DNA of 64,000 bases from the NCBI RefSeq assembly GCF_018977255.1, contig NW_024704742.1, positions 9,240,001-9,304,000 of the forward strand, in the 5' to 3' direction. Within the stretch, counting starts at the first letter, position 1. Each line of letters opens with the position of its first letter. Below the pieces are notes generated by a model. It saw only the letters and a program-made list of their open reading frames with translations, was not told the origin of the DNA and did not search any database. This document shows positions 11,921 through 52,314 of this stretch, one piece after another. Both the position numbers and the translations under genes were made by a program. The stretch comes from Callorhinchus milii (lineage: Eukaryota).

Positions 11921-12079
11921 TGTGGGGTGTGAGACAACACCAGCTTGGTAACTTCTTGTAGCTTCTGTGCATTTCAGATTAACCGAGGTAGAACGCTACG
12001 ACAACAACAGCTTACATTTATATAGTATCCTTCATGTAGATTAACATCTTGATGAGGTGCTTACACATGCTAACGGTAC

Positions 12080-12282
12080 CAGGAGCGGATTGGGGATATG
12101 AGAAATCGGGAAATTTCACGAGTGCCTGAAGAATGGCTCCCGATGCTCATCTTCATGCGCAACCGAGTTCAGAAGTTCCATTTAAACCGGACAAAGTTTT
12201 TAAATGCACAGATGTTTCAGGCTTTTTAGTGCCCCCCAATGAATTAGTGCCTCCATTTTACATCACAATCCCAAGCCCTCTC
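12080..12282. mobile_element. Possible hAT-type MITE relic
   Basis: Starts CAGGAGCGGATTG...AAATCGGGAAATTTC and has a degenerate CAATCC...CCCT end; resembles hAT termini from memory. Confidence 0.3.
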
Positions 12283-12414
12283 AGGAAGGAAATCCACCAC
12301 TGAATCTCACACAGTCTAATGTCAAGTCATTTCAAACCAATTGAGACAGAAACCTACTGACAGCAATGGGAACATTCAGAACGAAACAAGTTAGCCACTG
12401 AGGCATCCAAAAGA

Positions 12415-12720
12415 GAATTTAAAAGAATCTACACAGAGTAGCAAAACTGTGGAACTCGCTGCCAGAATTGGTGTTTGAATCAGATAGTATATATTATGCA
12501 TTCAAGAGAAACCTAGACCTTTACATAGGGGTAGTGTAATGCTGTGTGCAATTGGCAAATGCAAGGATTATTATTATTAGTAGTAGTAGTAGTATTATTA
12601 TAAGAGGGGAACAGAAGGTTCTGGTTTGAAGTGAGACGGGGTGGAGACTCGTGTAGAATATAAACATCCTGCATGGACTGGTTAAGCTGGCTGGTTGACT
12701 GTTTGTGTGCGGTAAAGTCT
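12415..12720 (+). mobile_element. CR1 3' relic interrupted by a SINE tail fragment (12539-12600)
   Basis: QRVAKLWNSLP..VFESDS remnant and a CR1-like 3' UTR. Confidence 0.55.
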
Positions 12721-13223
12721 TTTTAAATCTTTGTAAAGGTGTTCTTGTGCAGTGATTGTATTTTATAGGTGGACATGTAAAGTTTGTAAAGTTCTTAAAG
12801 AAGGGGCAGCCCTTACATCAATATCGATTCCAATCTCAAAACTAATAACACTAATTGATGATGTTATAGAATCAGAAAGAGGATTTGGTAAGTTTGTATT
12901 ACATCTCTTAAACTAACCAAATAACCAGCAGAAAGTAAACATTCAGCCAGACAGCATTCTCAGTATTGATGGAGCTGATATACGTTTAAAGTTAAGTGAT
13001 GCTTCATTGGTCCCCATAACAACAAGGATACTTTGCATTCAGCCTCAATATTTCTCAAACCTCTTGTTGTTCATTTCAAGTTTCGCCCACAAATACACAC
13101 TTTGCAGTATATCGTATCAAGCACTTTGAGACGTCTCGACGACACGATAAGGCACTATATCAAATGCAAGGATTATTATTTATTTTAAAAGAACTTAGGG
13201 ACAACAGAACACGTTTTTAATGA

Positions 13224-13358
13224 AGCTCAAAATACTGCAGATGCTGGAAATCCAGTTCTGGCGAAGGGTCGTGGACCGAAACGTTGACTCACTTTCCTTT
13301 CTACATAGATGCTGTCTGACCTGCTGAGTGTTCCCAGCGACTTCTCTTTTTGTTTCAG
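13224..13358 (+). mobile_element. Small non-autonomous Penelope-like/retrozyme-like element with hammerhead motif, copy 1
   Basis: Flanked by a perfect 11-bp direct repeat GTTTTTAATGA (13213-13223 and 13359-13369). Homologous to 51831-52002. Confidence 0.75.
13254..13289 (+). ncRNA. Minimal type-I hammerhead ribozyme motif, degenerate
   Basis: Layout: AGTT, core CTGGCGA (canonical CTGANGA), AG, stem II GGTC-GTG-GACC, GAAAC GTT, then GACT pairing with AGTT. Confidence 0.6.
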
Positions 13359-14019
13359 GTTTTTAATGATGATCTCTTTGACGGATCATTTTTCGTATAA
13401 GAACTTTCCTTTCTTCCTTCAGTCTGTAAAATCAGGAAGGAGACAAAAATAAAATCAATCGTTTTACTTTTTGAATGAAGCAGCAATGTATTTTCAAAGG
13501 ATTTTAAATTATTCAGATGAACCGAGCATCTTATCTCTGGGCTCAGTGTATTAGGTGTCGCGTGTTATGGCAGTTTTGATGTGCAGGCTATTAATAGCTG
13601 ACTCTGTCTCAAGACAAACCAAGCAGTAAATGTGTTTCAGCTCCCAAAGGATTCCTCCACAGGAAGAAAATATAAGTAAACGTGACTAAAGTAGCCACAA
13701 AACATAAATCTAGATTTACTGTTTGATATTTCCTTTTACTGCCTTATGGGATAACAGTGCAGTCATTCAGGCTTGGTTTGAGAGGGGGGGGGATATAGGA
13801 TAGATAAGTGTTTTTAAGGCTACAAATCTGCTTTAATGATGTGGGGGGGAGGGGGAGACGATGGGAAAAGCACATTGAACCACAGCAAAAAACTAATCAT
13901 TGCTATTGAAAAAACCTCCGTAACAGGCAATGGGAGGAAAGCCGCCCTCCATAGATTCCAGAGTACTGTAGATATCTACCAATCATGTTCCAGTAGATCA
14001 ATTTTATGTGGATGACGAT

Positions 14020-14085
14020 CAGGGTTGACTCTAGACTCGAGACAAACTAGGCGGCTGCCGAGGGTGGCAGATTTCTGGGCGGGAT
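14020..14085 (+). mobile_element. Possible hAT (Tip100-like) terminal fragment
   Basis: CAGGGTTGACTCTAG...AACTAGGCGGCTGCCGAGGGTGGCAGATTT resembles non-autonomous hAT ends from memory. Confidence 0.3.
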
Positions 14086-14869
14086 GGGTTGCAGTGAGTG
14101 CCTCATGCTGTATATGTAAATTCATCTTTTTAAAGTTGTAGCTAAAGCTATCGAACTTCTAAGGGATACGAGGCGGGCGGCACACTGATGTTTTCAAACG
14201 ATACGGGACGTTACCTCGCGTGGATGTTTGATGAAGTCGTTCACTTTGCAGGTCGCAATGAACCTCGGATTCCCTTGCTTAAAGTTTACAGACTCTAAAG
14301 ATCACTTGGTGCTTTATCACGCAACACCGTGCAAAGGTCACTATCTTAATACAAGTTAGTTTTTATTGAAGCATGCATTGCCCTGTCTTTTGAGCCAGTT
14401 GCGCTTTTTAAAATGATTTTTTTTTGTTATTTAATTGTTTTAATTGTTTTGCATTTTCTTTGATCTCTGTACTTCAGGACAGTTTGTTCAGTATGTTATA
14501 TTAATAAGTACACCATGTCCTCTGGGGATACCATAAGTACTTTTTTTAAAAAAAATTCTTACACAGCTTCTTTTCAAACATTTCTCCCATTGGAGACTAG
14601 ATTGGTTTGCATTTATAGAGTTAAAAATTCTTAAACAGTGACAGAACTTAACAAACTGCACTCAAAAAGTGTTTTAAAAAGTTAAGTTTTAAAGTCTATT
14701 TACTGAATATTAGGCTGAAAGTGTTCACGAGTCCAGGACTATTCTTGGCTAAAAGACTTTGAGCAGATTTTTAACTGAGCACCAGACTGCAGAGTTTTTT
14801 TCTGATATCTGTTCTGAACAGCGACAGGTTACAGACTGATCCAGTTAGAGACTGGATATCATATACAAG

Positions 14870-15055
14870 TAGCTTGGCCAATGCCAGGGCACCAGTGGAA
14901 ACTCCCTTCTGTTTTCCAATAGAGCCATGGGATCTTTAACTTCCACCTGAACAGGCAAATGGGACCTCGGTTTAACATCTCATCCATAGAATGTCACCTC
15001 TGACAATGCACCGCTTCCCCAGTAATGTGTTGGACGTGTCAGCCTAGACTGTGAG
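14870..15055 (-). mobile_element. Deu-SINE fragment
   Basis: GCCATGGGATCTTTAAC..CACCTGAACAGGC..CCTCGGTTTAACATCTCATCC. Confidence 0.75.
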
Positions 15056-21450: not shown

Positions 21451-22259
21451 TTTTGGAGGGATAATTGCCCCGGGAAAGCGATCCACCAATCGACTAACAA
21501 CTGGGTTCCTACTTACTACTTGGTAAACAGAAACATGTGGAGTAAGGAAACTTGCCCAACGTTTCGCCCTGCCAGGAATTGAACCCAGGTGTCTCGCTTG
21601 CGAGGCGAGTACTCTAACCACTGAGCTACAGGACTCCACATACCAAATGGAAGGATTATTTAATTTTTATTATCAGCTCTTTGATAACGTTGACACATGC
21701 TCATTTTTGATACTTGTGTAGAGCAGGATAAAAACAGATGATAATGTTCTTTCTTGGCTGATTGCTTTGATTGCAGTACAAAGATGGTATAAGATGACCA
21801 CAAATGCAGTCGACGAAAGTGGGGAGAGAGATGGGCTTATCAGAACATCAGAGATGCATATGGGGAGAAGAATAAGAAAAAATAATTGGACGTACTAAAC
21901 TTTTTTTAAAAAAATCTTTGTTTCTCAACTGTCTCTTGGCACCAGTGTTGTGCGGAGGAGTTAGTTCCATAGAGTTTGCATTTGCTAGTGCTTCTCCCAC
22001 ATCTACTTAGCGGAATCCATCCTGGCATACCCTGAAAAGTGCATTCCAATAAAATCTGTCGTCTTCTGTTCATCTCTGTGCTGCACGGAGTTGTGTGGTT
22101 GTATCCTTAATGCAGATGTTCTATCAAGTATTGCATTCATTGTTGTCTCTCCATTTTGATACTCTGTTTTGAGATCTGTATCTACACTGCTCTATTGATC
22201 AAGCGCTCCGGGACACTACCTCGTGTGAAGTGTGCTATAGAAGCTGTTGTTGCTGATAC

Positions 22260-22519: not shown

Positions 22520-23248
22520 TTCGCTTTCGCCCACAAAACACACAGCCACTACACTTTACAGTTTATTCTATGAAGCACTTTGAGACATCTCGAAGACATG
22601 ATAAGGTGTTATATCAAATGCAAGGATTATTATTATTGTTATTATTACCTTCCCCCTCCCCAGTCCCGTGGCTCAGCGGTTAGAGCACTTGCCTTGCAAG
22701 CGAGACACCTGGGTTCAATTCCCGGCAGGGCGAAACCTTGGGCAAGTTTCCTTACTCCACACAGAGCCTAATAATAATCCCTCCAAAAAATAAAACAATA
22801 ATAAGTTGCTCATTTTCAATCCACGACTGTTTGTGAGACAGTGCTGTGCGCAATTGGCTGCCGCGTTTTGCCCACAAATATACAGTCAATTCATTTTACA
22901 GTCTGTTCTGTGAAGGGCTTTAAGACGTCTAGAAGATGTGAAAAGCGCTATATCAAATGCAAGGATTATTATTATCATTTTCAGCTTCCATTCCCCAAGC
23001 TTGCTTGCCCAGCCAGCAGAGTGAAGAGCTTTGACTTGAGTGGCAGTATATACAGTGATAATAATAATCATAATAATAATAAATTGATCACTCAATCCAT
23101 AACTGTTTGTGGGACACTGCTGTGCCCAATTGCCACATTTCGCTCACAAAATATACGGTCAATTCACTTTACAGTATTCCGTGAAGCATTTTGAGACATC
23201 TCGGAGACGTGATAAGCCGCTATATCAAATACAAGGATTATTATTATT
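22520..23248 (+). mobile_element. Three tandem SINE pieces: 22520-22645, full short-type copy 22662-22975, and 23080-23248
   Basis: Repeated Deu/tail modules and one intact head. Confidence 0.85.
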
Positions 23249-45235: not shown

Positions 45236-48200
45236 CCAGTCGGGGAGCGGCAGCAGGACAGCGCGGGGAGGAGCCTGGGCCTACTGACCCAGGTACTTAA
45301 ACTCGACGCCGGAGCGAGTGCAGCCCCGGGGGGGGAGGGGACGGAGCGGGGGAACTGCGACGTCATAGATTAGTTTTCAGGTGAGTGCGCGCGCACAAAA
45401 AAAAAAAAAAAAAAAAAAAACCCTCCGCGCCCCCCCCCCCAGGGCTCACATCAGAGCCCACTATGGTCCTGTTGGGTTCGATGCCCCAATCTGCGGGATA
45501 ATGCCATCCACCTGACCGCTCGCTCCCGGTCCCCGCGTGCGCACTATGGCTGCCGCTTTGACCCGAGCCCCCTCACCCCCCCCCTCCCCCCCCTCCTCTC
45601 TCCCCCAAACCCTCCCCCTCTCCATCTCTCCCGCTCTCTCCTCCTCTCTCTCCGTCCCTCTCGTCTTCTATCCCCACTTGACCCTCCCACAACCTCCCTC
45701 TGTTCCAGTCTGGGAATCCTCCGCCGGGCTCACCGTGGCACTCGGCGTTGGCTGTCCAGCAGCAGCCACACCGACTGCCCCATTCCCCACCACACTCGCC
45801 ACCCACCCCGGACACAGACCCGGGGAGTCAACCTCTCCTCCCTCATCCCCATCTCCCCCACCCCTGCCTCACAACCTGGACCCCCCTCCCCTCCCACACA
45901 CCCTTCTGTCAACCGCTCCCTCCACATCGGACTGCAAAATGTCCGCTCCCTCTGCAACAAGGCCCTGGTCATCAACGATCTCATCCTTGATGAGAACGTT
46001 GATATCATGGCCTTGACAGAAACCTGGCTCACCCCAGGCGACACCTTCCCCCTCACGGAGGCCACGCCACCCGGCTACACCTCCCACCACATCCCCCGCC
46101 CCAACCGCCGTGGCGGTGGTGTTGCCCTTATCTCAAGGACACCACTTGCCCTATCCCCCTACTCCTCTGGCTCTTTCCCCTCCTTTGAGCACCTCACCCT
46201 CTCCCACCCCTCATTCCTCTCCCTTAAAATCCTCCTCCTCTACCGGCCCCCTAAAACCTCTCCCACCTTCATCTCTGACATTTCAACACTCCTCACATCT
46301 CTTTGCCTCTCCTCTGATCGCCTCATCATCCTGGGCGACTTTAACCTACACTTCACCCCCTCCTGCTCCATCTCCACAGACTTCTCTTCCCTGCTCTCCT
46401 CACTCAACCTCTCCCTACACATAAACTCCCCCACTCACAGTCACGGCCACCCACTCGATTTGGTGATCACCCGGGGCCTCAGTGTCTCGGATGTCACTAT
46501 TACCGACAAGGCCATCTCCGACCACTACTTCATCTCCTTCACCACCTCCACCCCCCTCCCCACCTCCACCAGACCCACCACCATCTTCTACCGCCCTTGG
46601 AAGAAGTTACCCCCACAATCCCTAACCGATGCCTTGGAGTCCTCTGAACTCCTCTCCCTCTGGCCTTCAACCCTCACCGACCCCTCTTCTCCTCTCTCCC
46701 TCCTCCACAATATCCTCTCCTCCACACTCGATACTCTTGCCCCCATCACTTCCCGCACTGTCTCCTACTCCCGCTCCTCCCCCTGGTACACCACCCACCT
46801 CCGCTCACTGAAATGCCAGGTGCGGGCTGCTGAGCGCACCTTTGTCAAATCCGGCTTAACGGTCCACCGACAAATCTGGCTGGACCTCCTCAAAATTTAC
46901 CGCTCCACTCTAGCCTCGGCCAAGTCGTCCTTCTACTCCAGGATAATCCTGGAGGCGAAGAACAACCCCAGGCTACTGTTTTCCACCACATCCCGACTCC
47001 TCCGTCCCCCCCGCCACCCCGCGCAGGTCATCTCCTCCAACCTTCACTGCGAGGAGATGCTGGATTTCCTTGAATCCAAGATCAAGGGAATCCGCTCCGC
47101 GGTCACTTCCCCTCCAACTTCCACCCACCACCCACCCCTTCCCTCCCACACTCCGACTCCTACCCATCCTCCCCTACACACCTTCGTACCCGTTTCCCCA
47201 CCCTCTGTCACTGAACTCATCCTATCCCTAAAACCAACCACCTGCTCCCTTGACCCCATCCCCACTCCACTCCTTATCTCCCAGCTCCATTTTCTTGCCC
47301 CACACATCACTGACATCATAAACCTGTCCCTCTCCTCTGGCTCTGTCCCCATTCCATTAAAAACTGCCATCATCACGCCCACCCTGAAAAAACCCTCCCT
47401 TGATGCGTCGCAGCTATCAAGCTACCGGCCCATCTCCAACCTCCCCTTTCTCTCCAAGGTCTTGGAAAGAGTTGTCGCCTCCCAACTGCGCTCTTTCCTC
47501 TCCACCCATTCTCTTTTTGAACCCCTTCAGTCAGGTTTCCGTGCTGCTCATAGCACAGAAACTGCCCTGGTCAAGGTCACCAATGATATCCTGACTATCT
47601 GTGACCAGGGCTCCCTCTGTCTCCTCGTCCTCCTCGACCTATCGGCAGCATTCGATACGGTCGACCACGCTATCCTACTCCACCGCTTGTCCTCCCACCT
47701 CAACCTTCAAGGCACTGTCCTTGAATGGTTTAGCTCTTACCTTTCCCACCGTCTTCACTTCGTCTCAACGAATGGCTTCTCCTCCACCCCCCGTACTGTC
47801 TCATGTGGTGTCCCTCAGGGCTCTGTCCTCGGTCCCCTCCTCTTCACCCTCTATATGCTCCCCCTCGGTGACATCATCCGCAAACATGGGGTTAACTTCC
47901 ACATGTATGCGGATGACACCCAACTCTACCTTTCCTCCTCTACTCTCAACTCCACGACCACCGATGTCCTGACAGCCTGCCTGTCCGACATCGAGTCCTG
48001 GACGAGAGACAACTTTCTTCAGCTCAACGTGCGAAAAACCGAGGCCCTCCTGATTGGCTCACGTCAGCGCCTCCGCACCTCAGGCGCTGACACCATCAGC
48101 ATCCAAGGCTGCACTCTCCACCTCTCAAAGCCAGTCAGGAACCTCGGCGTTTTGTTCGACCCTGAGCTGTCCTTTCTCCCTCACATCCGCACCACAACTG

Positions 48201-48957
48201 GCACCGCCTTCCATCACCTCCGGAATATCGCCAGATTACGGCACTACCTCACCCCTCACGCTGCTGAAACCCTGGTTCACGCCTTTGTCACCTCAAGGCT
48301 GGACTATGGGAACTCTCTCCTCGCCGGCCTTCCCGGCACCTCCCTCCACAAGCTGCAGGTCATTCAGAACTCTGCAGCTCGTGTACTGTCCCGCACCAGG
48401 CTTCGGGACCACATCACTCCCACCCTCGCTCGCCTCCACTGGCTCCCCATCCCCCAGAGGATTGATTTCAAGATCCTCATCCTCACCTACAAGGCCATTC
48501 ACGGCCTTGCTCCCTCCTACCTCTCCAACCTACTATCCCCCTACCTACCTGCCCGTACCCTCCGTTCCTCTGGCTCCGGTCTGCTCCACGTCCCCCGCCC
48601 CAACCGCCCTACTATCGGTGGTCGGGCCTTCAGCCTCTCAGCCCCGAGGCTCTGGAACTCCATCCCCCAGTGCCTTCGCCTTGCTTCCTCCCTTTCCTCC
48701 TTCAAGGCCGGTCTCAAAACCTTTCTCTTTGACCGTGCCTTCAGCTCCCCTCTCGACTCTCTTCCTCCTCCTCGCTCCCTCCCTTCCCTCCCCTCACCCT
48801 GACCATTTCCCCCCTCCTCTCTCCCTCCCTTCCCTCCCCTCACCCTGACCATTTCCCCCCTGCTCGGGTCATGACCCAACTGTGCAGCGCCTTGGGACGT
48901 CCTCCTGACGTGAAAGGCGCTCTATAAATGGAATCTTGTTGTTGTTGTTGTTGTTGT
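45236..48957 (+). mobile_element. Near full-length young L2-clade LINE, single-ORF type
   Basis: It has a CpG-rich 5' region, an uninterrupted APE-RT frame, a 3' stem-loop (GCGCCTT-GGG-ACGTC-CTCCT-GACGT-GA-AAGGCGC) and a (GTT)n tail ending near 48957. The 5' boundary is approximate; a possible 4-bp TSD GTAT lies at 45232-45235 and 48956-48959. Confidence 0.93.
46007..48802 (+). CDS. L2 ORF2-type protein: apurinic-like endonuclease plus reverse transcriptase (931 aa from the first in-frame ATG; frame open from 45374)
   Basis: APE motifs: [37 protein letters not shown] motifs: [52 protein letters not shown]2-type C-terminus: [19 protein letters not shown]. Confidence 0.96.
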
Positions 48958-48959
48958 AT

Positions 48960-50640
48960 AACTGAGTAAATCTCAGAGGCCGGATAAATTGGATCTGAGG
49001 ATCCTTAAGGAACTAAGGGAGGAAGTCGCTGGCACAAATCTTTCAGAAATCACTGAATACTGGAGAGGTGCTGGGGGAATAGAGAAGGGCAGATGCTACT
49101 CCTATTTTTAAGAAAGGTAACAAAGAGGTTATGATTAATCTATATAAAACACTGGTTAGGCCTCAGTTAGAATGCTGTGCCCAGTTCTGGAAGGATGTTA
49201 AGGCATTGGAAAGGATGCAGAGGAGATTTACGAGGATGGTACCAGGAATGAGGGACCTTGATTATGAGGAAAGGCTGGAGAGGTTAAGATTATTCTCATT
49301 GGAGCAGAGAAGGTTACAAAGAGACCTAATAGAGGTCTTCAAAATCATGAGGGGATTTGATAGGTTAGAAAGGGAAAAACTGTTTCCACTGGTGGGTGTA
49401 TCGGTGACTCGAGGTCACAGATTCAAAATAGTATCTAAAAGAAGCAGAGGGGAGGAGAGAAGAAATTTTTTCATGCAGCGAGTTGTTCAAATCTGGAATG
49501 CATTACCTGAAAGGGTGGTCGAGGCTGATTCGATAACTATTTTTAAAAACACGGTGGACGGGTATTTGAGGAGGGTTTGCAGGGTTATGGGGAAAGGGCT
49601 GGGAAGTGGGATTGACATTAATTGCTCTATTCAAAGAGCCGGCACAAACTCAATGGGCCCAATGGCCTCTTTTTGTGCTGTACAATTCTATGATATGATT
49701 CTATGAAAAGTGACCAATGAAACTACAGACCAGTAAGTTTGACGTCCATTGTGAGTAAAATTATGGAGACTCTTATTAAGCATGCAGCATCTGGACAGAT
49801 CGGGCAGATCGGTGGCAGATGAAATTCAATGTGGAGAAATCTTAAGTACTTCACATGGGGACAAACAATCCTGGAAGGGATTATTATTTGAATGGGATGA
49901 AAATAAAATGTATTGAAAATGAAAAAGACCTGGGCATCTTGATTGACAATAAATTGAAGCTCTCCCAACAATGCTCTATGGCAGTGAGTAAAGCAAACCA
50001 GATGTTGGGATGTATCAAAAGATCAATAGCAAGTCAAAATAGTGGGGTAATCCTGCCACTGTATAAATCATTAGCGAGACCATACTCAGAGTACCGTTTA
50101 CAGTTCTGGTCAGGCAGTACAAAAAGGATATGGGAGAAATCGAGAGGATACAGAGGAGGGCAACCAAAATGATTGAGGGAATGGAAGGATTGGTCTATGA
50201 GGAGCAACTAGGTAAATTGAGCATGTTCATGCTGAAAAGAGAAGCTCGAGAGGCTACATGATTGCTATCTTTAAGATTCTAAATGGGCAGGACGATATAG
50301 ATTATGACAGGCTGTTTCAACTTGTCCAGAATAGTAAAACCAGAGGACATGGTCTGCGATTGAAGGGGGGGGAATTCAGAATGAATCTACGCAAACACTA
50401 TTTCAGTGAGCGAATAATGAACCTGTGGAACAGGCTCCCTAGAGAGATGGTTGAAGCAGGAAATGTCGATTCTTTCAAACACAGGCTAGATAGTTTTCTT
50501 TTAGGAAATAACATTATGGGATACAGTGCAATGGGTAGTTCAGGACATATGTGCAATGCGACTGCCAGGAAGGTGGAAGGAAAACAAAATAGATCTTGGT
50601 CTTTTTACATCTAGCGTTTGTTATGTTCTCATATTCTTAA
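48960..50640 (+). mobile_element. Older CR1 fragment, internally deleted and split by a younger CR1
   Basis: KSQRPD..RILKELREE..FKKGNK, then NYRPVSLTSIVSKIME, a jump to WQMKFN, EKDLGIL, ANQMLGCIKR, TRGHGLRL, WNRLP. Confidence 0.88.
49122..49705 (+). mobile_element. Younger CR1 3' fragment nested in the older CR1
   Basis: ORF 49131-49706 LYKTLVRPQLE..ERLERLRLFSLEQRRL; ATTCTATG tail. Confidence 0.9.
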
Positions 50641-51830
50641 TATGCATCTGCTTGTCCCACTACTTTATGTTGGTTTGCTGCTGTTCTTCATTCCTTTTTT
50701 TGGATGTCTGCTTTCAACCAGCCCCTGTATACCCCACCCACCACTTAAGAAAAAGAATGGAAAGTAACCAATGAGTCACTGTATTCAATGCCTTCCTTTC
50801 TCTATGAAAAGATTGTTCCCTTTCCTACATGGCAGAACAGGAAAAGCCAACTTTAGTTACATCAAAGCATATCCACTTAGATATCCACTTAGAGGGGAGT
50901 CAACGAACTAGCGAAACACTACCACCACATGGAAAATACTGCAGAGCTACTTTCTTTGATGAGCAATTCTCCAATGTAAGGGACAACTCCTTCCAAACAA
51001 ACAAGACTAGCACAGCACCCCTCACAAGCAGACCTCAGCCTGATGTCCAGCACCCTCAGAATCACTTGAAGAAACGTTGACATGAGATGATTGACAGCGA
51101 CCAGATACATTAATTCTTCCACATGGGCTTGTTGCTGGTTGAGCAATTGCAGTGTGTAGAATTCTGCCTCAACAGCTCAGTTGGCTGGATCAATGCACTG
51201 GGTTCAGCTAAAGTGGTGGAACAAATTTATACATGAATTAAACAAAAATGCTGTGTGCTTTTGCACTTTTTCCCAGAGAGATCGATATCAGTTGTGCCCA
51301 CTTGTGCCGAATACTCTTTGGAATTAGGTAAGCAGGGTGTGTCCATCCAGGCATTTCATTTTAAATGCAGGTAACTTTCGATTTGAAGGTAGAATATATA
51401 TGTGGAACTCTCTGTCTCGTTCGGCTATTCTTGAGCATGGTCATGGATGTGCCAAAAACCAATTTGAACACAAAAAAAGGACTGCACTTGAATTAACTAT
51501 TATCTCTTTTCATTTTGTTTTTCTATCTTTGATTGTGTTTTTCTGCTCACCAAGTGGATAGTATATTTTTCTCGATTTGTTGGAATTCAATTTCCCACAG
51601 GTCAGCTAAATAGCAAAGCTTCCTCTATCTTGTCTTTCAGTAATACAACTTAATCCCAACCTGAGTAGAAACCATCCCTAAAACAGAATGATTTTTTAAA
51701 ATCTTTATCTTCACATCACCCAGTTGTGTTAAGTTGTAAAGAGTTTTGTTTGTGTAGAGTTAACTTGACTGACTGAACCTGATTCATTTCAGGCTGATCC
51801 AGTCAATAGGGACTAGACTCCATCAACCTT

Positions 51831-52002
51831 AAAGGAAAATGCTGCAGATGCTGGAAATCTAAAATAAAAACAGAAGTTGCTGGGAACACTCGGCAGGTCA
51901 GAGTTCTGATGAAAGGTCATTAACCTGAAACCTTAACTCACTTTCATCTCTCCATAGATGCTGCCTGACCTGCTGAGTGTTCCCAGAGACACCTGTTGTT
52001 AT
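51831..52002 (+). mobile_element. Small non-autonomous Penelope-like/retrozyme-like element with hammerhead motif, copy 2
   Basis: Flanked by a perfect 12-bp direct repeat TCCATCAACCTT (51819-51830 and 52003-52014). Internal 22-bp inverted repeat at 51880-51901 and 51965-51986. Confidence 0.78.
51901..51939 (+). ncRNA. Minimal type-I hammerhead ribozyme motif, degenerate
   Basis: Layout: GAGTT, core CTGATGA, A, stem II AGGT-CATTA-ACCT, GAAAC CTT, then AACTC pairing with GAGTT. Confidence 0.65.
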
Positions 52003-52314
52003 TCCATCAACCTTGGTCTGTTGTAAAATCCAGGTCTCCGAACTGAAAGGACTGTTCGGAGTCTAATCTCCTTTATCCACTCTTCTCTTTGCTTAATATA
52101 GTCTTTTAATTATTTCAGCAGCACTTGCCCTTAAAGCAATTATTTTGTAATGCAGTGGAACAGTGGCATTTCACACTTCTCATATTTGGAACTTGTCTTT
52201 TTTAAGTAAACTATACTGATAAGCGTTAATAACAATAAATGAAAGAATCATATTTAATATTCTGCTTTTTGTATGTAACACATGAGGGATTGGAAATAAT
52301 ATTGGGATGCAAAC

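Follow-up and report, generated by a model that had tools for sequence, protein, structure and literature searches.

Penelope-like elements (PLEs) of metazoans carry minimal hammerhead motifs, for which Cervera and De la Pena (2014, PMC4209133) give the consensus CUGANGAH GNNNNN..NNNNNC GAAAN palindrome NU H. The same account reports structure-preserving, compensatory variation across PLE hammerhead families and describes the minimal motifs as not cleaving when they are present as monomers. The insertions of these elements are described as heavily 5'-truncated, often with an adjacent inverted truncated pLTR, a one-sided tail of 30-40 bp and target duplications of 8-10 bp (Arkhipova et al. 2013, PMC3846280; Craig et al. 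2021, PMC8557442). As reported for a PLE of Anolis (Frangieh et al. 2024, PMC11167929), the element protein nicks and extends both target strands, two adjacent start sites on the RNA delimit the tail, and the RNA that serves as template is uncleaved; the hammerhead of this element cleaved only together with its protein and was dispensable for insertion in vitro. PLEs and retrozymes of vertebrates, including one chondrichthyan, are treated in a recent preprint (bioRxiv 10.64898/2026.07.22.740005). The literature that we covered, with most subscription papers, Repbase and Dfam lying outside it, held no description of the hammerhead-bearing PLE family considered here in cartilaginous fish, nor of twin priming in PLEs in connection with it.

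The present analysis concerns a 64-kb stretch of DNA from Callorhinchus milii, called the window throughout. The insert at 13224-13358 of this window is a 135-base dead stub of a very common Penelope-like element with a small hammerhead motif of a known kind. Very probably, its parent was a Penelope-like retrotransposon bearing an endonuclease, and the insert, in which the 5' truncation is extreme, was produced by priming on two strands and is no longer active. The locus itself is minor, being one decayed stub among very many. What is curious in this otherwise ordinary insert is its 5' edge at helix I of the hammerhead, together with the fact that the two pieces of which it consists abut exactly.

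Results

Genomic context of the insert

The window is made of vertebrate-type, repeat-rich DNA with tRNA-headed SINEs. Eleven sites (e.g. 21564-21635, 22662-22733 and 1173-1244) hold tRNA-like SINE heads that score above the Rfam tRNA threshold, and several of these heads are followed by GAAACGTT, which is at these places a chance look-alike of the hammerhead box. An uninterrupted frame of 1142 residues with endonuclease and reverse-transcriptase domains occupies 45374-48799 (+) and is apparently an intact LINE ORF; we take this LINE to be L2/CR1-like, and it is possibly the driver of the abundant SINEs. Two other frames (49083-49703 and 50216-50611) presumably resemble the C-terminal part of LINE proteins of the CR1 type, and neither gave a Pfam match. 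The stretch 13080-13180 is the 3' tail of a SINE or LINE ending in (ATT)n, with about 45 look-alikes in the window, and the insert follows after a further 32 nt. A target preference for the (ATT)n tails of SINEs was considered, as many paralogue ends join them, yet 0.7% of the sites of the window lie within 10 nt of the approximately 45 tails and no preference can be claimed.

Two-piece anatomy and target-site duplications

The features of the insert and of its relative in the window are collected in Table 1. The insert is composed of two pieces, an inverted tail followed by a forward pLTR end, a division that had escaped the sequence-only reading of the locus. The inverted arm starts at the exact base where the forward arm stops, with zero overlap. 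A second copy, the sole other one in the window, lies 38 kb away, and its two arms overlap by about 42 nt; its inverted arm holds, in one run, the end of the forward piece and the 29-nt stretch that makes up the whole inverted arm of the insert. In both copies, the duplication is followed by the inverted arm, then by the forward arm, which begins at helix I, and then by the duplication again. Both carry on their left end the 29-nt tail, which is slightly below the published 30-40 bp, and both start about 32 nt upstream of the predicted cleavage site and end at least 70 nt downstream of it. A splice acceptor may account for their 5' edge at helix I, as an analogy with D. virilis would suggest. 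Within the second copy, the arms 51831-51902 and 51960-52002 differ at 7 of 39 aligned positions, which exceeds what a single template and equal ageing would give; two templates or error-prone joining could be involved.

Table 1. Features of the insert and of the second copy of the family (positions in the window)
Feature	Position	Strand	Remarks
Target-site duplication, left copy	13213..13223	+	GTTTTTAATGA; exact repeat; imperfect extension possible to 13210-13228
Inverted 29-nt tail	13224..13252	-	continues the element beyond the point where the forward piece stops; 23/24 match to the distal part of the inverted piece of the second copy
Forward 106-nt pLTR end	13253..13358	+	opens with the 5' strand of helix I of the hammerhead; 81% identity over 105 nt to 51902-52006
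Helix I, 5' strand	13254..13257	+	AGTT; pairs with GACT at 13286-13289, closing U-G pair
Core box and extra A	13258..13265	+	CTGGCGA at 13258-13264; G13261 is a private A6-to-G lesion
Helix II	13266..13277	+	family GGGTC-loop-GACCC, 5 bp; insert lacks one C and keeps 4 bp, GGTC/GACC
Core box and palindromic, loop-less helix III	13278..13285	+	GAAACGTT; predicted cut after T13285; fits the published GAAAN-palindrome-NU-H
ATG and short frame	13309..13358	+	open to the end of the piece; runs through the tail in the second copy
Target-site duplication, right copy	13359..13369	+	GTTTTTAATGA; exact repeat
Second copy	51819..52014	+	12-bp duplication; inverted piece of 72 nt at 51831-51902; forward piece from helix I at 51902-52002
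Duplication of the second copy	51819-51830 and 52003-52014		TCCATCAACCTT; 12 bp, unlike GTTTTTAATGA

When 135-nt intervals were drawn at random, 2 of 5000 had an exact repeat of at least 11 nt close to their two ends. The stretches 13210-13228 and 13356-13374 are identical at 16 of 19 positions, so that the duplication is perhaps longer than 11 bp and its boundaries are uncertain by 3-5 nt. The left duplication is preceded by CAC (13210-13212) and the right one by CAG (13356-13358), a pair that is possibly a short primer-template match between the target and the element RNA or the remnant of a longer, decayed duplication. The flanks of the two copies gave no alignment and, as their duplications differ as well, the two copies are separate insertions. 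Both the 11-bp duplication and the independence of the two insertions had already been proposed by the sequence-only reading, and our data bear them out.

Candidate coding sequence

The ATG at 13309 possibly opens the ORF of the element and the frame behind it would then hold its first codons, as judged from the arrangement described for other PLEs (PMC3846280). None of the 147 of 163 frames of the window that were scanned against protein domains is an RT/GIY-YIG ORF linked to the insert. The protein and DNA collections gave chance matches only and no RT/GIY-YIG coding sequence linked to the repeat. The 29-residue frame that runs into the tail matched no Pfam family, and the one protein match of a 39-residue frame, an unrelated tandem-repeat peptide, was set aside as chance. 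As no such ORF could be linked to the repeat, membership in the PLEs rests on the RNA motif together with the anatomy, from which we infer a parent PLE with RT and GIY-YIG domains.

A very high-copy family with recurrent end points

Relatives of the insert were sampled among the contigs of four public runs from one study, placed on 12990-13589 at 80% likeness; the tables are pooled over contigs and do not describe whole copies, the contigs reaching the 5' part were pre-selected for likeness to the insert, and contigs drop rare variants. The summed contig depth over the forward arm exceeds that over the left flank by a factor of about 48,000-67,000 (four to five orders of magnitude above the flanks), a ratio that is not a copy number, and the family is a very high-copy one. 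Its majority letters, CTGACGAA GGGTC..GACCC GAAACGTT, agree with the minimal hammerhead that has been published for PLEs. The A at 13261 accounts for 91-96% of the summed paralogue depth (70-80 contigs per run) and the extra C behind 13275, in helix II, for 63-67% of it, and the paralogues differ from the insert at 13303 and at 13315 in 96-98% of the depth. Four changes are hence private to the insert: A6G, the loss of the helix II C, and those at 13303 and 13315. Furthermore, the paralogues show a C-to-T change at 13282 and a G-to-A change at 13283, each with 10-12% of the depth (about a fifth when combined), and these represent CpG decay within the palindrome. At 13286, no variant is listed among the paralogues, for which reason the family as such may have the U-G pair in helix I.

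The end points 13228, 13355 and 13254 recur at other loci. Among the 15 of 154 joints listed, a neighbouring SINE tail is joined to 13228 in 38, 50, 35 and 35 contigs of the four runs, to 13355 on the opposite strand in 8, 12, 5 and 9 contigs, and to 13254 in 4, 5, 3 and 5 contigs. Other loci also yield pieces that span 13254-13355, and pieces from other loci cross the junction between tail and hammerhead with 4-10 gap letters. No empty site occurs among the same 15 of 154 joints, and at least one filled junction of the present locus is listed in each of the four runs. Extra copies were also sought in viral contigs (0 and 0 matches), genome contigs (0 and 1) and metagenome contigs (6); all 7 matches are GC-rich, bacterial-type DNA in which only the pattern matches, and they were rejected.

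The hammerhead motif and its lesions

A minimal-hammerhead descriptor with at most one core mismatch retrieved just 2 sites in the window, those of the two copies, neither of them core-perfect, and 0 sites in each of 10 shuffles. No hammerhead family reached the gathering score of Rfam in the window, where the only matches are the 11 tRNA-like ones, and a search of region 13000-13600 at E up to 10 returned 8 chance matches, none of them to a hammerhead; minimal hammerhead motifs escape the Rfam models. Helix I of the insert has four pairs, helix III is palindromic and devoid of loop 3, and the NUH triplet is present. The core CUGANGA...GAAA is not intact in the insert (CTGGCGA) and is intact in the majority of the family, in which A + GGGTC/GACCC provides both the G10.1-C11.1 pair and the one extra base that separates A9 from helix II. 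At the helix II base pair, the insert has kept G-C despite its lost C, and the other copy has A-U.

Most of what the sequence-only reading had stated on the motif agrees with this picture: the core box with A6 changed to G (base 13261), the AGTT/GACT stem with its G-U pair, the 4-bp GGTC/GACC stem and the intact palindromic box are all present. The lost C of stem II, which is the second lesion of the insert, had been overlooked. The lesions of the other copy are at 51922 (stem II) and 51932 (palindrome), so the notion that the two copies carry complementary lesions is correct for the core but not for stem II, which is damaged in each copy. Likewise, the intact letters from which a functional ancestor was to be reconstructed do exist, but they are simply the majority letters of the paralogues, and no rebuilding from two copies is needed.

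The probability of the hammerhead fold is 0.0014 in the insert versus 0.22 in the other copy, the value of the insert being low because the new G lets 13260-13263 pair with the 3' core. The pairs of helices I and II have probabilities of 0.55-0.89 in the insert, and the palindrome permits dimer pairing in silico. Free folding gives neither the motif nor the whole insert a greater stability than that of shuffles (z +1.11 and +0.93). A6 is required for hammerhead cleavage, and the insert copy most likely neither cleaves nor does anything else. A single repaired motif would likely give a negative result in a cleavage assay as a monomer, since the minimal hammerheads of PLEs are described as not cleaving in this form and that of Anolis as depending on its protein.

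Two copies do not inform on selection

The two copies were aligned in register, and 10 pairs were scored. Helix II then reads GGGTC/GACC- in the insert versus AGGTC/AACCT in the other copy. Six of the 10 pairs are standard pairs with identical letters in the two copies, one has changed on one side (U-A/U-G), two are unpaired in one copy, one faces a gap, and none has changed on both sides. The covarying stems previously proposed, GGTC/GACC versus AGGT/ACCT, are therefore one and the same stem read one base apart (0 of 10 double changes), and the selection on RNA structure deduced from them is not supported, the two copies in register being free of double-sided changes. With the extra C of the family restored, one compensatory pair appears (G-C in the family versus A-U in the other copy), and half of this change is a CpG-type C-to-T, the C standing before a G; the A-U form may mark a true subfamily. 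Neutral simulation of nine pairs with uniform rates gave at least one compensatory pair in 16% of the trials at 19% divergence and in 23% at 23% divergence. Moreover, the columns conserved between the copies amount to 29 of 38 in the motif versus 53 of 63 in the downstream sequence. Because there are 0 double changes, a single compensatory pair is at chance level and the motif is less conserved than the downstream sequence, the two copies carry no information on selection. Selection in the active lineages of PLE hammerheads is plausible by analogy with the published families, and the idea is not new. A word of caution follows: 'covariation' between two copies must be judged on an in-register alignment, with CpG decay taken into account.

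Discussion

Origin of the insert

The anatomy of the insert is best explained by an insertion primed on two strands. The PLE protein would nick both target strands about 11 nt apart, and each nick would prime reverse transcription at one of two start sites, which lie close to the end of the element RNA and about 29 nt from each other. The first cDNA, begun at the distal start site, would copy the 29-nt tail only, and the second, begun at the proximal site, would run back over 106 nt, crossing the hammerhead in its uncleaved state and reaching the 5' strand of helix I. Head-to-head joining of the two cDNAs and filling of the gaps would produce the succession of duplication, inverted tail, forward pLTR end and duplication, the stagger between the nicks leaving the target duplication. 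The hammerhead would have travelled as cargo of the pLTR, and neutral decay after insertion would account for A6G, the lost helix II C and the two further private changes.

Possible, if unlikely, is true twin priming by the PLE protein on one single RNA, the distal cDNA stopping at the proximal primer and the proximal cDNA ending at the foot of helix I, where the RNA would have a defined 5' end, instead of at the ribozyme cut. The template would be an RNA of about 135 nt whose 5' end is provided by a transcription start or a splice junction, and the hammerhead would serve as a folded handle or a stop, not as a nuclease. If this were true, the tens of thousands of stubs would constitute a natural data set on the second-strand step, which is still unsolved for the insertion of PLEs.

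Alternatively, the unit of 135 nt (or an RNA of this length with its start at helix I) could itself be a non-autonomous mini-element or a retrozyme-like monomer, transcribed and mobilised in trans by a PLE protein, which we regard as quite improbable. The start of both window copies at the 5' strand of helix I is in keeping with such a unit, as are the pieces 13254-13355 from other loci and, among the 15 of 154 joints listed, those that lead to 13254 in 3-5 contigs of each run, and animal retrozymes have been proposed, in the sources consulted, to derive from PLE pLTRs. However, the junctions vary between copies, with 0, 4-10 or about 42 extra letters, so that inheritance as a unit does not apply to the inverted arm. 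Identity as a non-LTR retrozyme was rejected, given that tandem units are lacking (no tandem repeat or array in 12000-15000, and two copies 38 kb apart in the window) and that, unlike in a retrozyme monomer, no end lies at the predicted cleavage site; in addition, the loop-less helix III is of the PLE type and not of the canonical retrozyme type.

Inverted repeats are deletion-prone, and a longer PLE insertion might have lost its middle by deletion between inverted arms; alternatively, a cDNA patch might have been captured at a DNA break. The ambiguity of the boundaries by 3-5 nt, with letters shared with the target, would suit these scenarios, but an inverted arm that stops exactly at the end of the forward arm is not expected from a later deletion, nor are repeated stops at helix I, and the duplication is clean, which makes either of them very improbable. 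Scarcely credible is a ribozyme selected and working at 13213-13369, as the strong form of the sequence-only reading would have it: helices I and II can still pair and the palindrome allows dimers in silico, but this solitary copy without a tandem partner has two private lesions in a motif of 38 nt that is less conserved than its downstream sequence, folds no better than shuffles and shows no double-sided pair change.

Comparison with known systems

Animal non-LTR retrozymes (PMC7229834; bioRxiv 10.64898/2026.07.22.740005), as they are described there, share with the insert a short, non-coding sequence, a type I hammerhead and a relation to the pLTRs of PLEs. They differ from it in that they form head-to-tail tandem units that are cut into circles, whereas the insert is a single, partly inverted piece with no end at the cleavage site.

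The minimal type I hammerheads of PLEs (PMC4209133) are closer. As reported, they have in common with the family majority the CUGANGA core, the G10.1-C11.1 pair and the extra base before helix II, as well as a palindromic C-G helix III without loop 3, a short helix I and thousands of solitary, dispersed copies; the GUU cleavage triplet is shared too, and occurs in the Tetraodon and Nasonia rows of the published alignment. The insert departs from them by A6G and its lost C, and the motifs of that paper are tied to ORFs, a tie that is not seen here. The rows of the alignment that were compared include no cartilaginous fish.

The Poseidon element PAc of Anolis (Frangieh et al. 2024, PMC11167929) resembles the insert by its two adjacent reverse-transcription start sites downstream of the hammerhead and its AT-rich target, according to the data reported for it. 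The nicking and extension of both target strands and the use of an uncleaved RNA template, described for PAc, would also apply to the insert, as its anatomy leads us to infer. The start sites of the insert are about 70 and 101 nt past the predicted cut, in contrast to 85-92 nt for the main site of PAc, and the candidate ATG of the insert comes after the hammerhead and not at helix II.

Finally, compared with the endonuclease-bearing PLE units described by Arkhipova et al. (2013, PMC3846280) and Craig et al. (2021, PMC8557442), the insert is of minimum size, since its inverted arm is the tail alone and the arms do not overlap, so that no palindrome is formed, and its duplication is at least 11 bp long versus 8-10 bp in the rotifer examples. 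It shares with them the head-to-head inverted truncated pLTR, the short duplication and the one-sided extension of about 30 nt, and the first codons of a frame would lie inside the pLTR and tail, as in the PLEs of rotifers. Junctions and 5' ends examined across the family could bear on second-strand priming and on the cutting of the template by the hammerhead. The insert exemplifies the smallest PLE insertion unit, and it matches the mechanism with two start sites that has been shown in vitro for the Anolis element.
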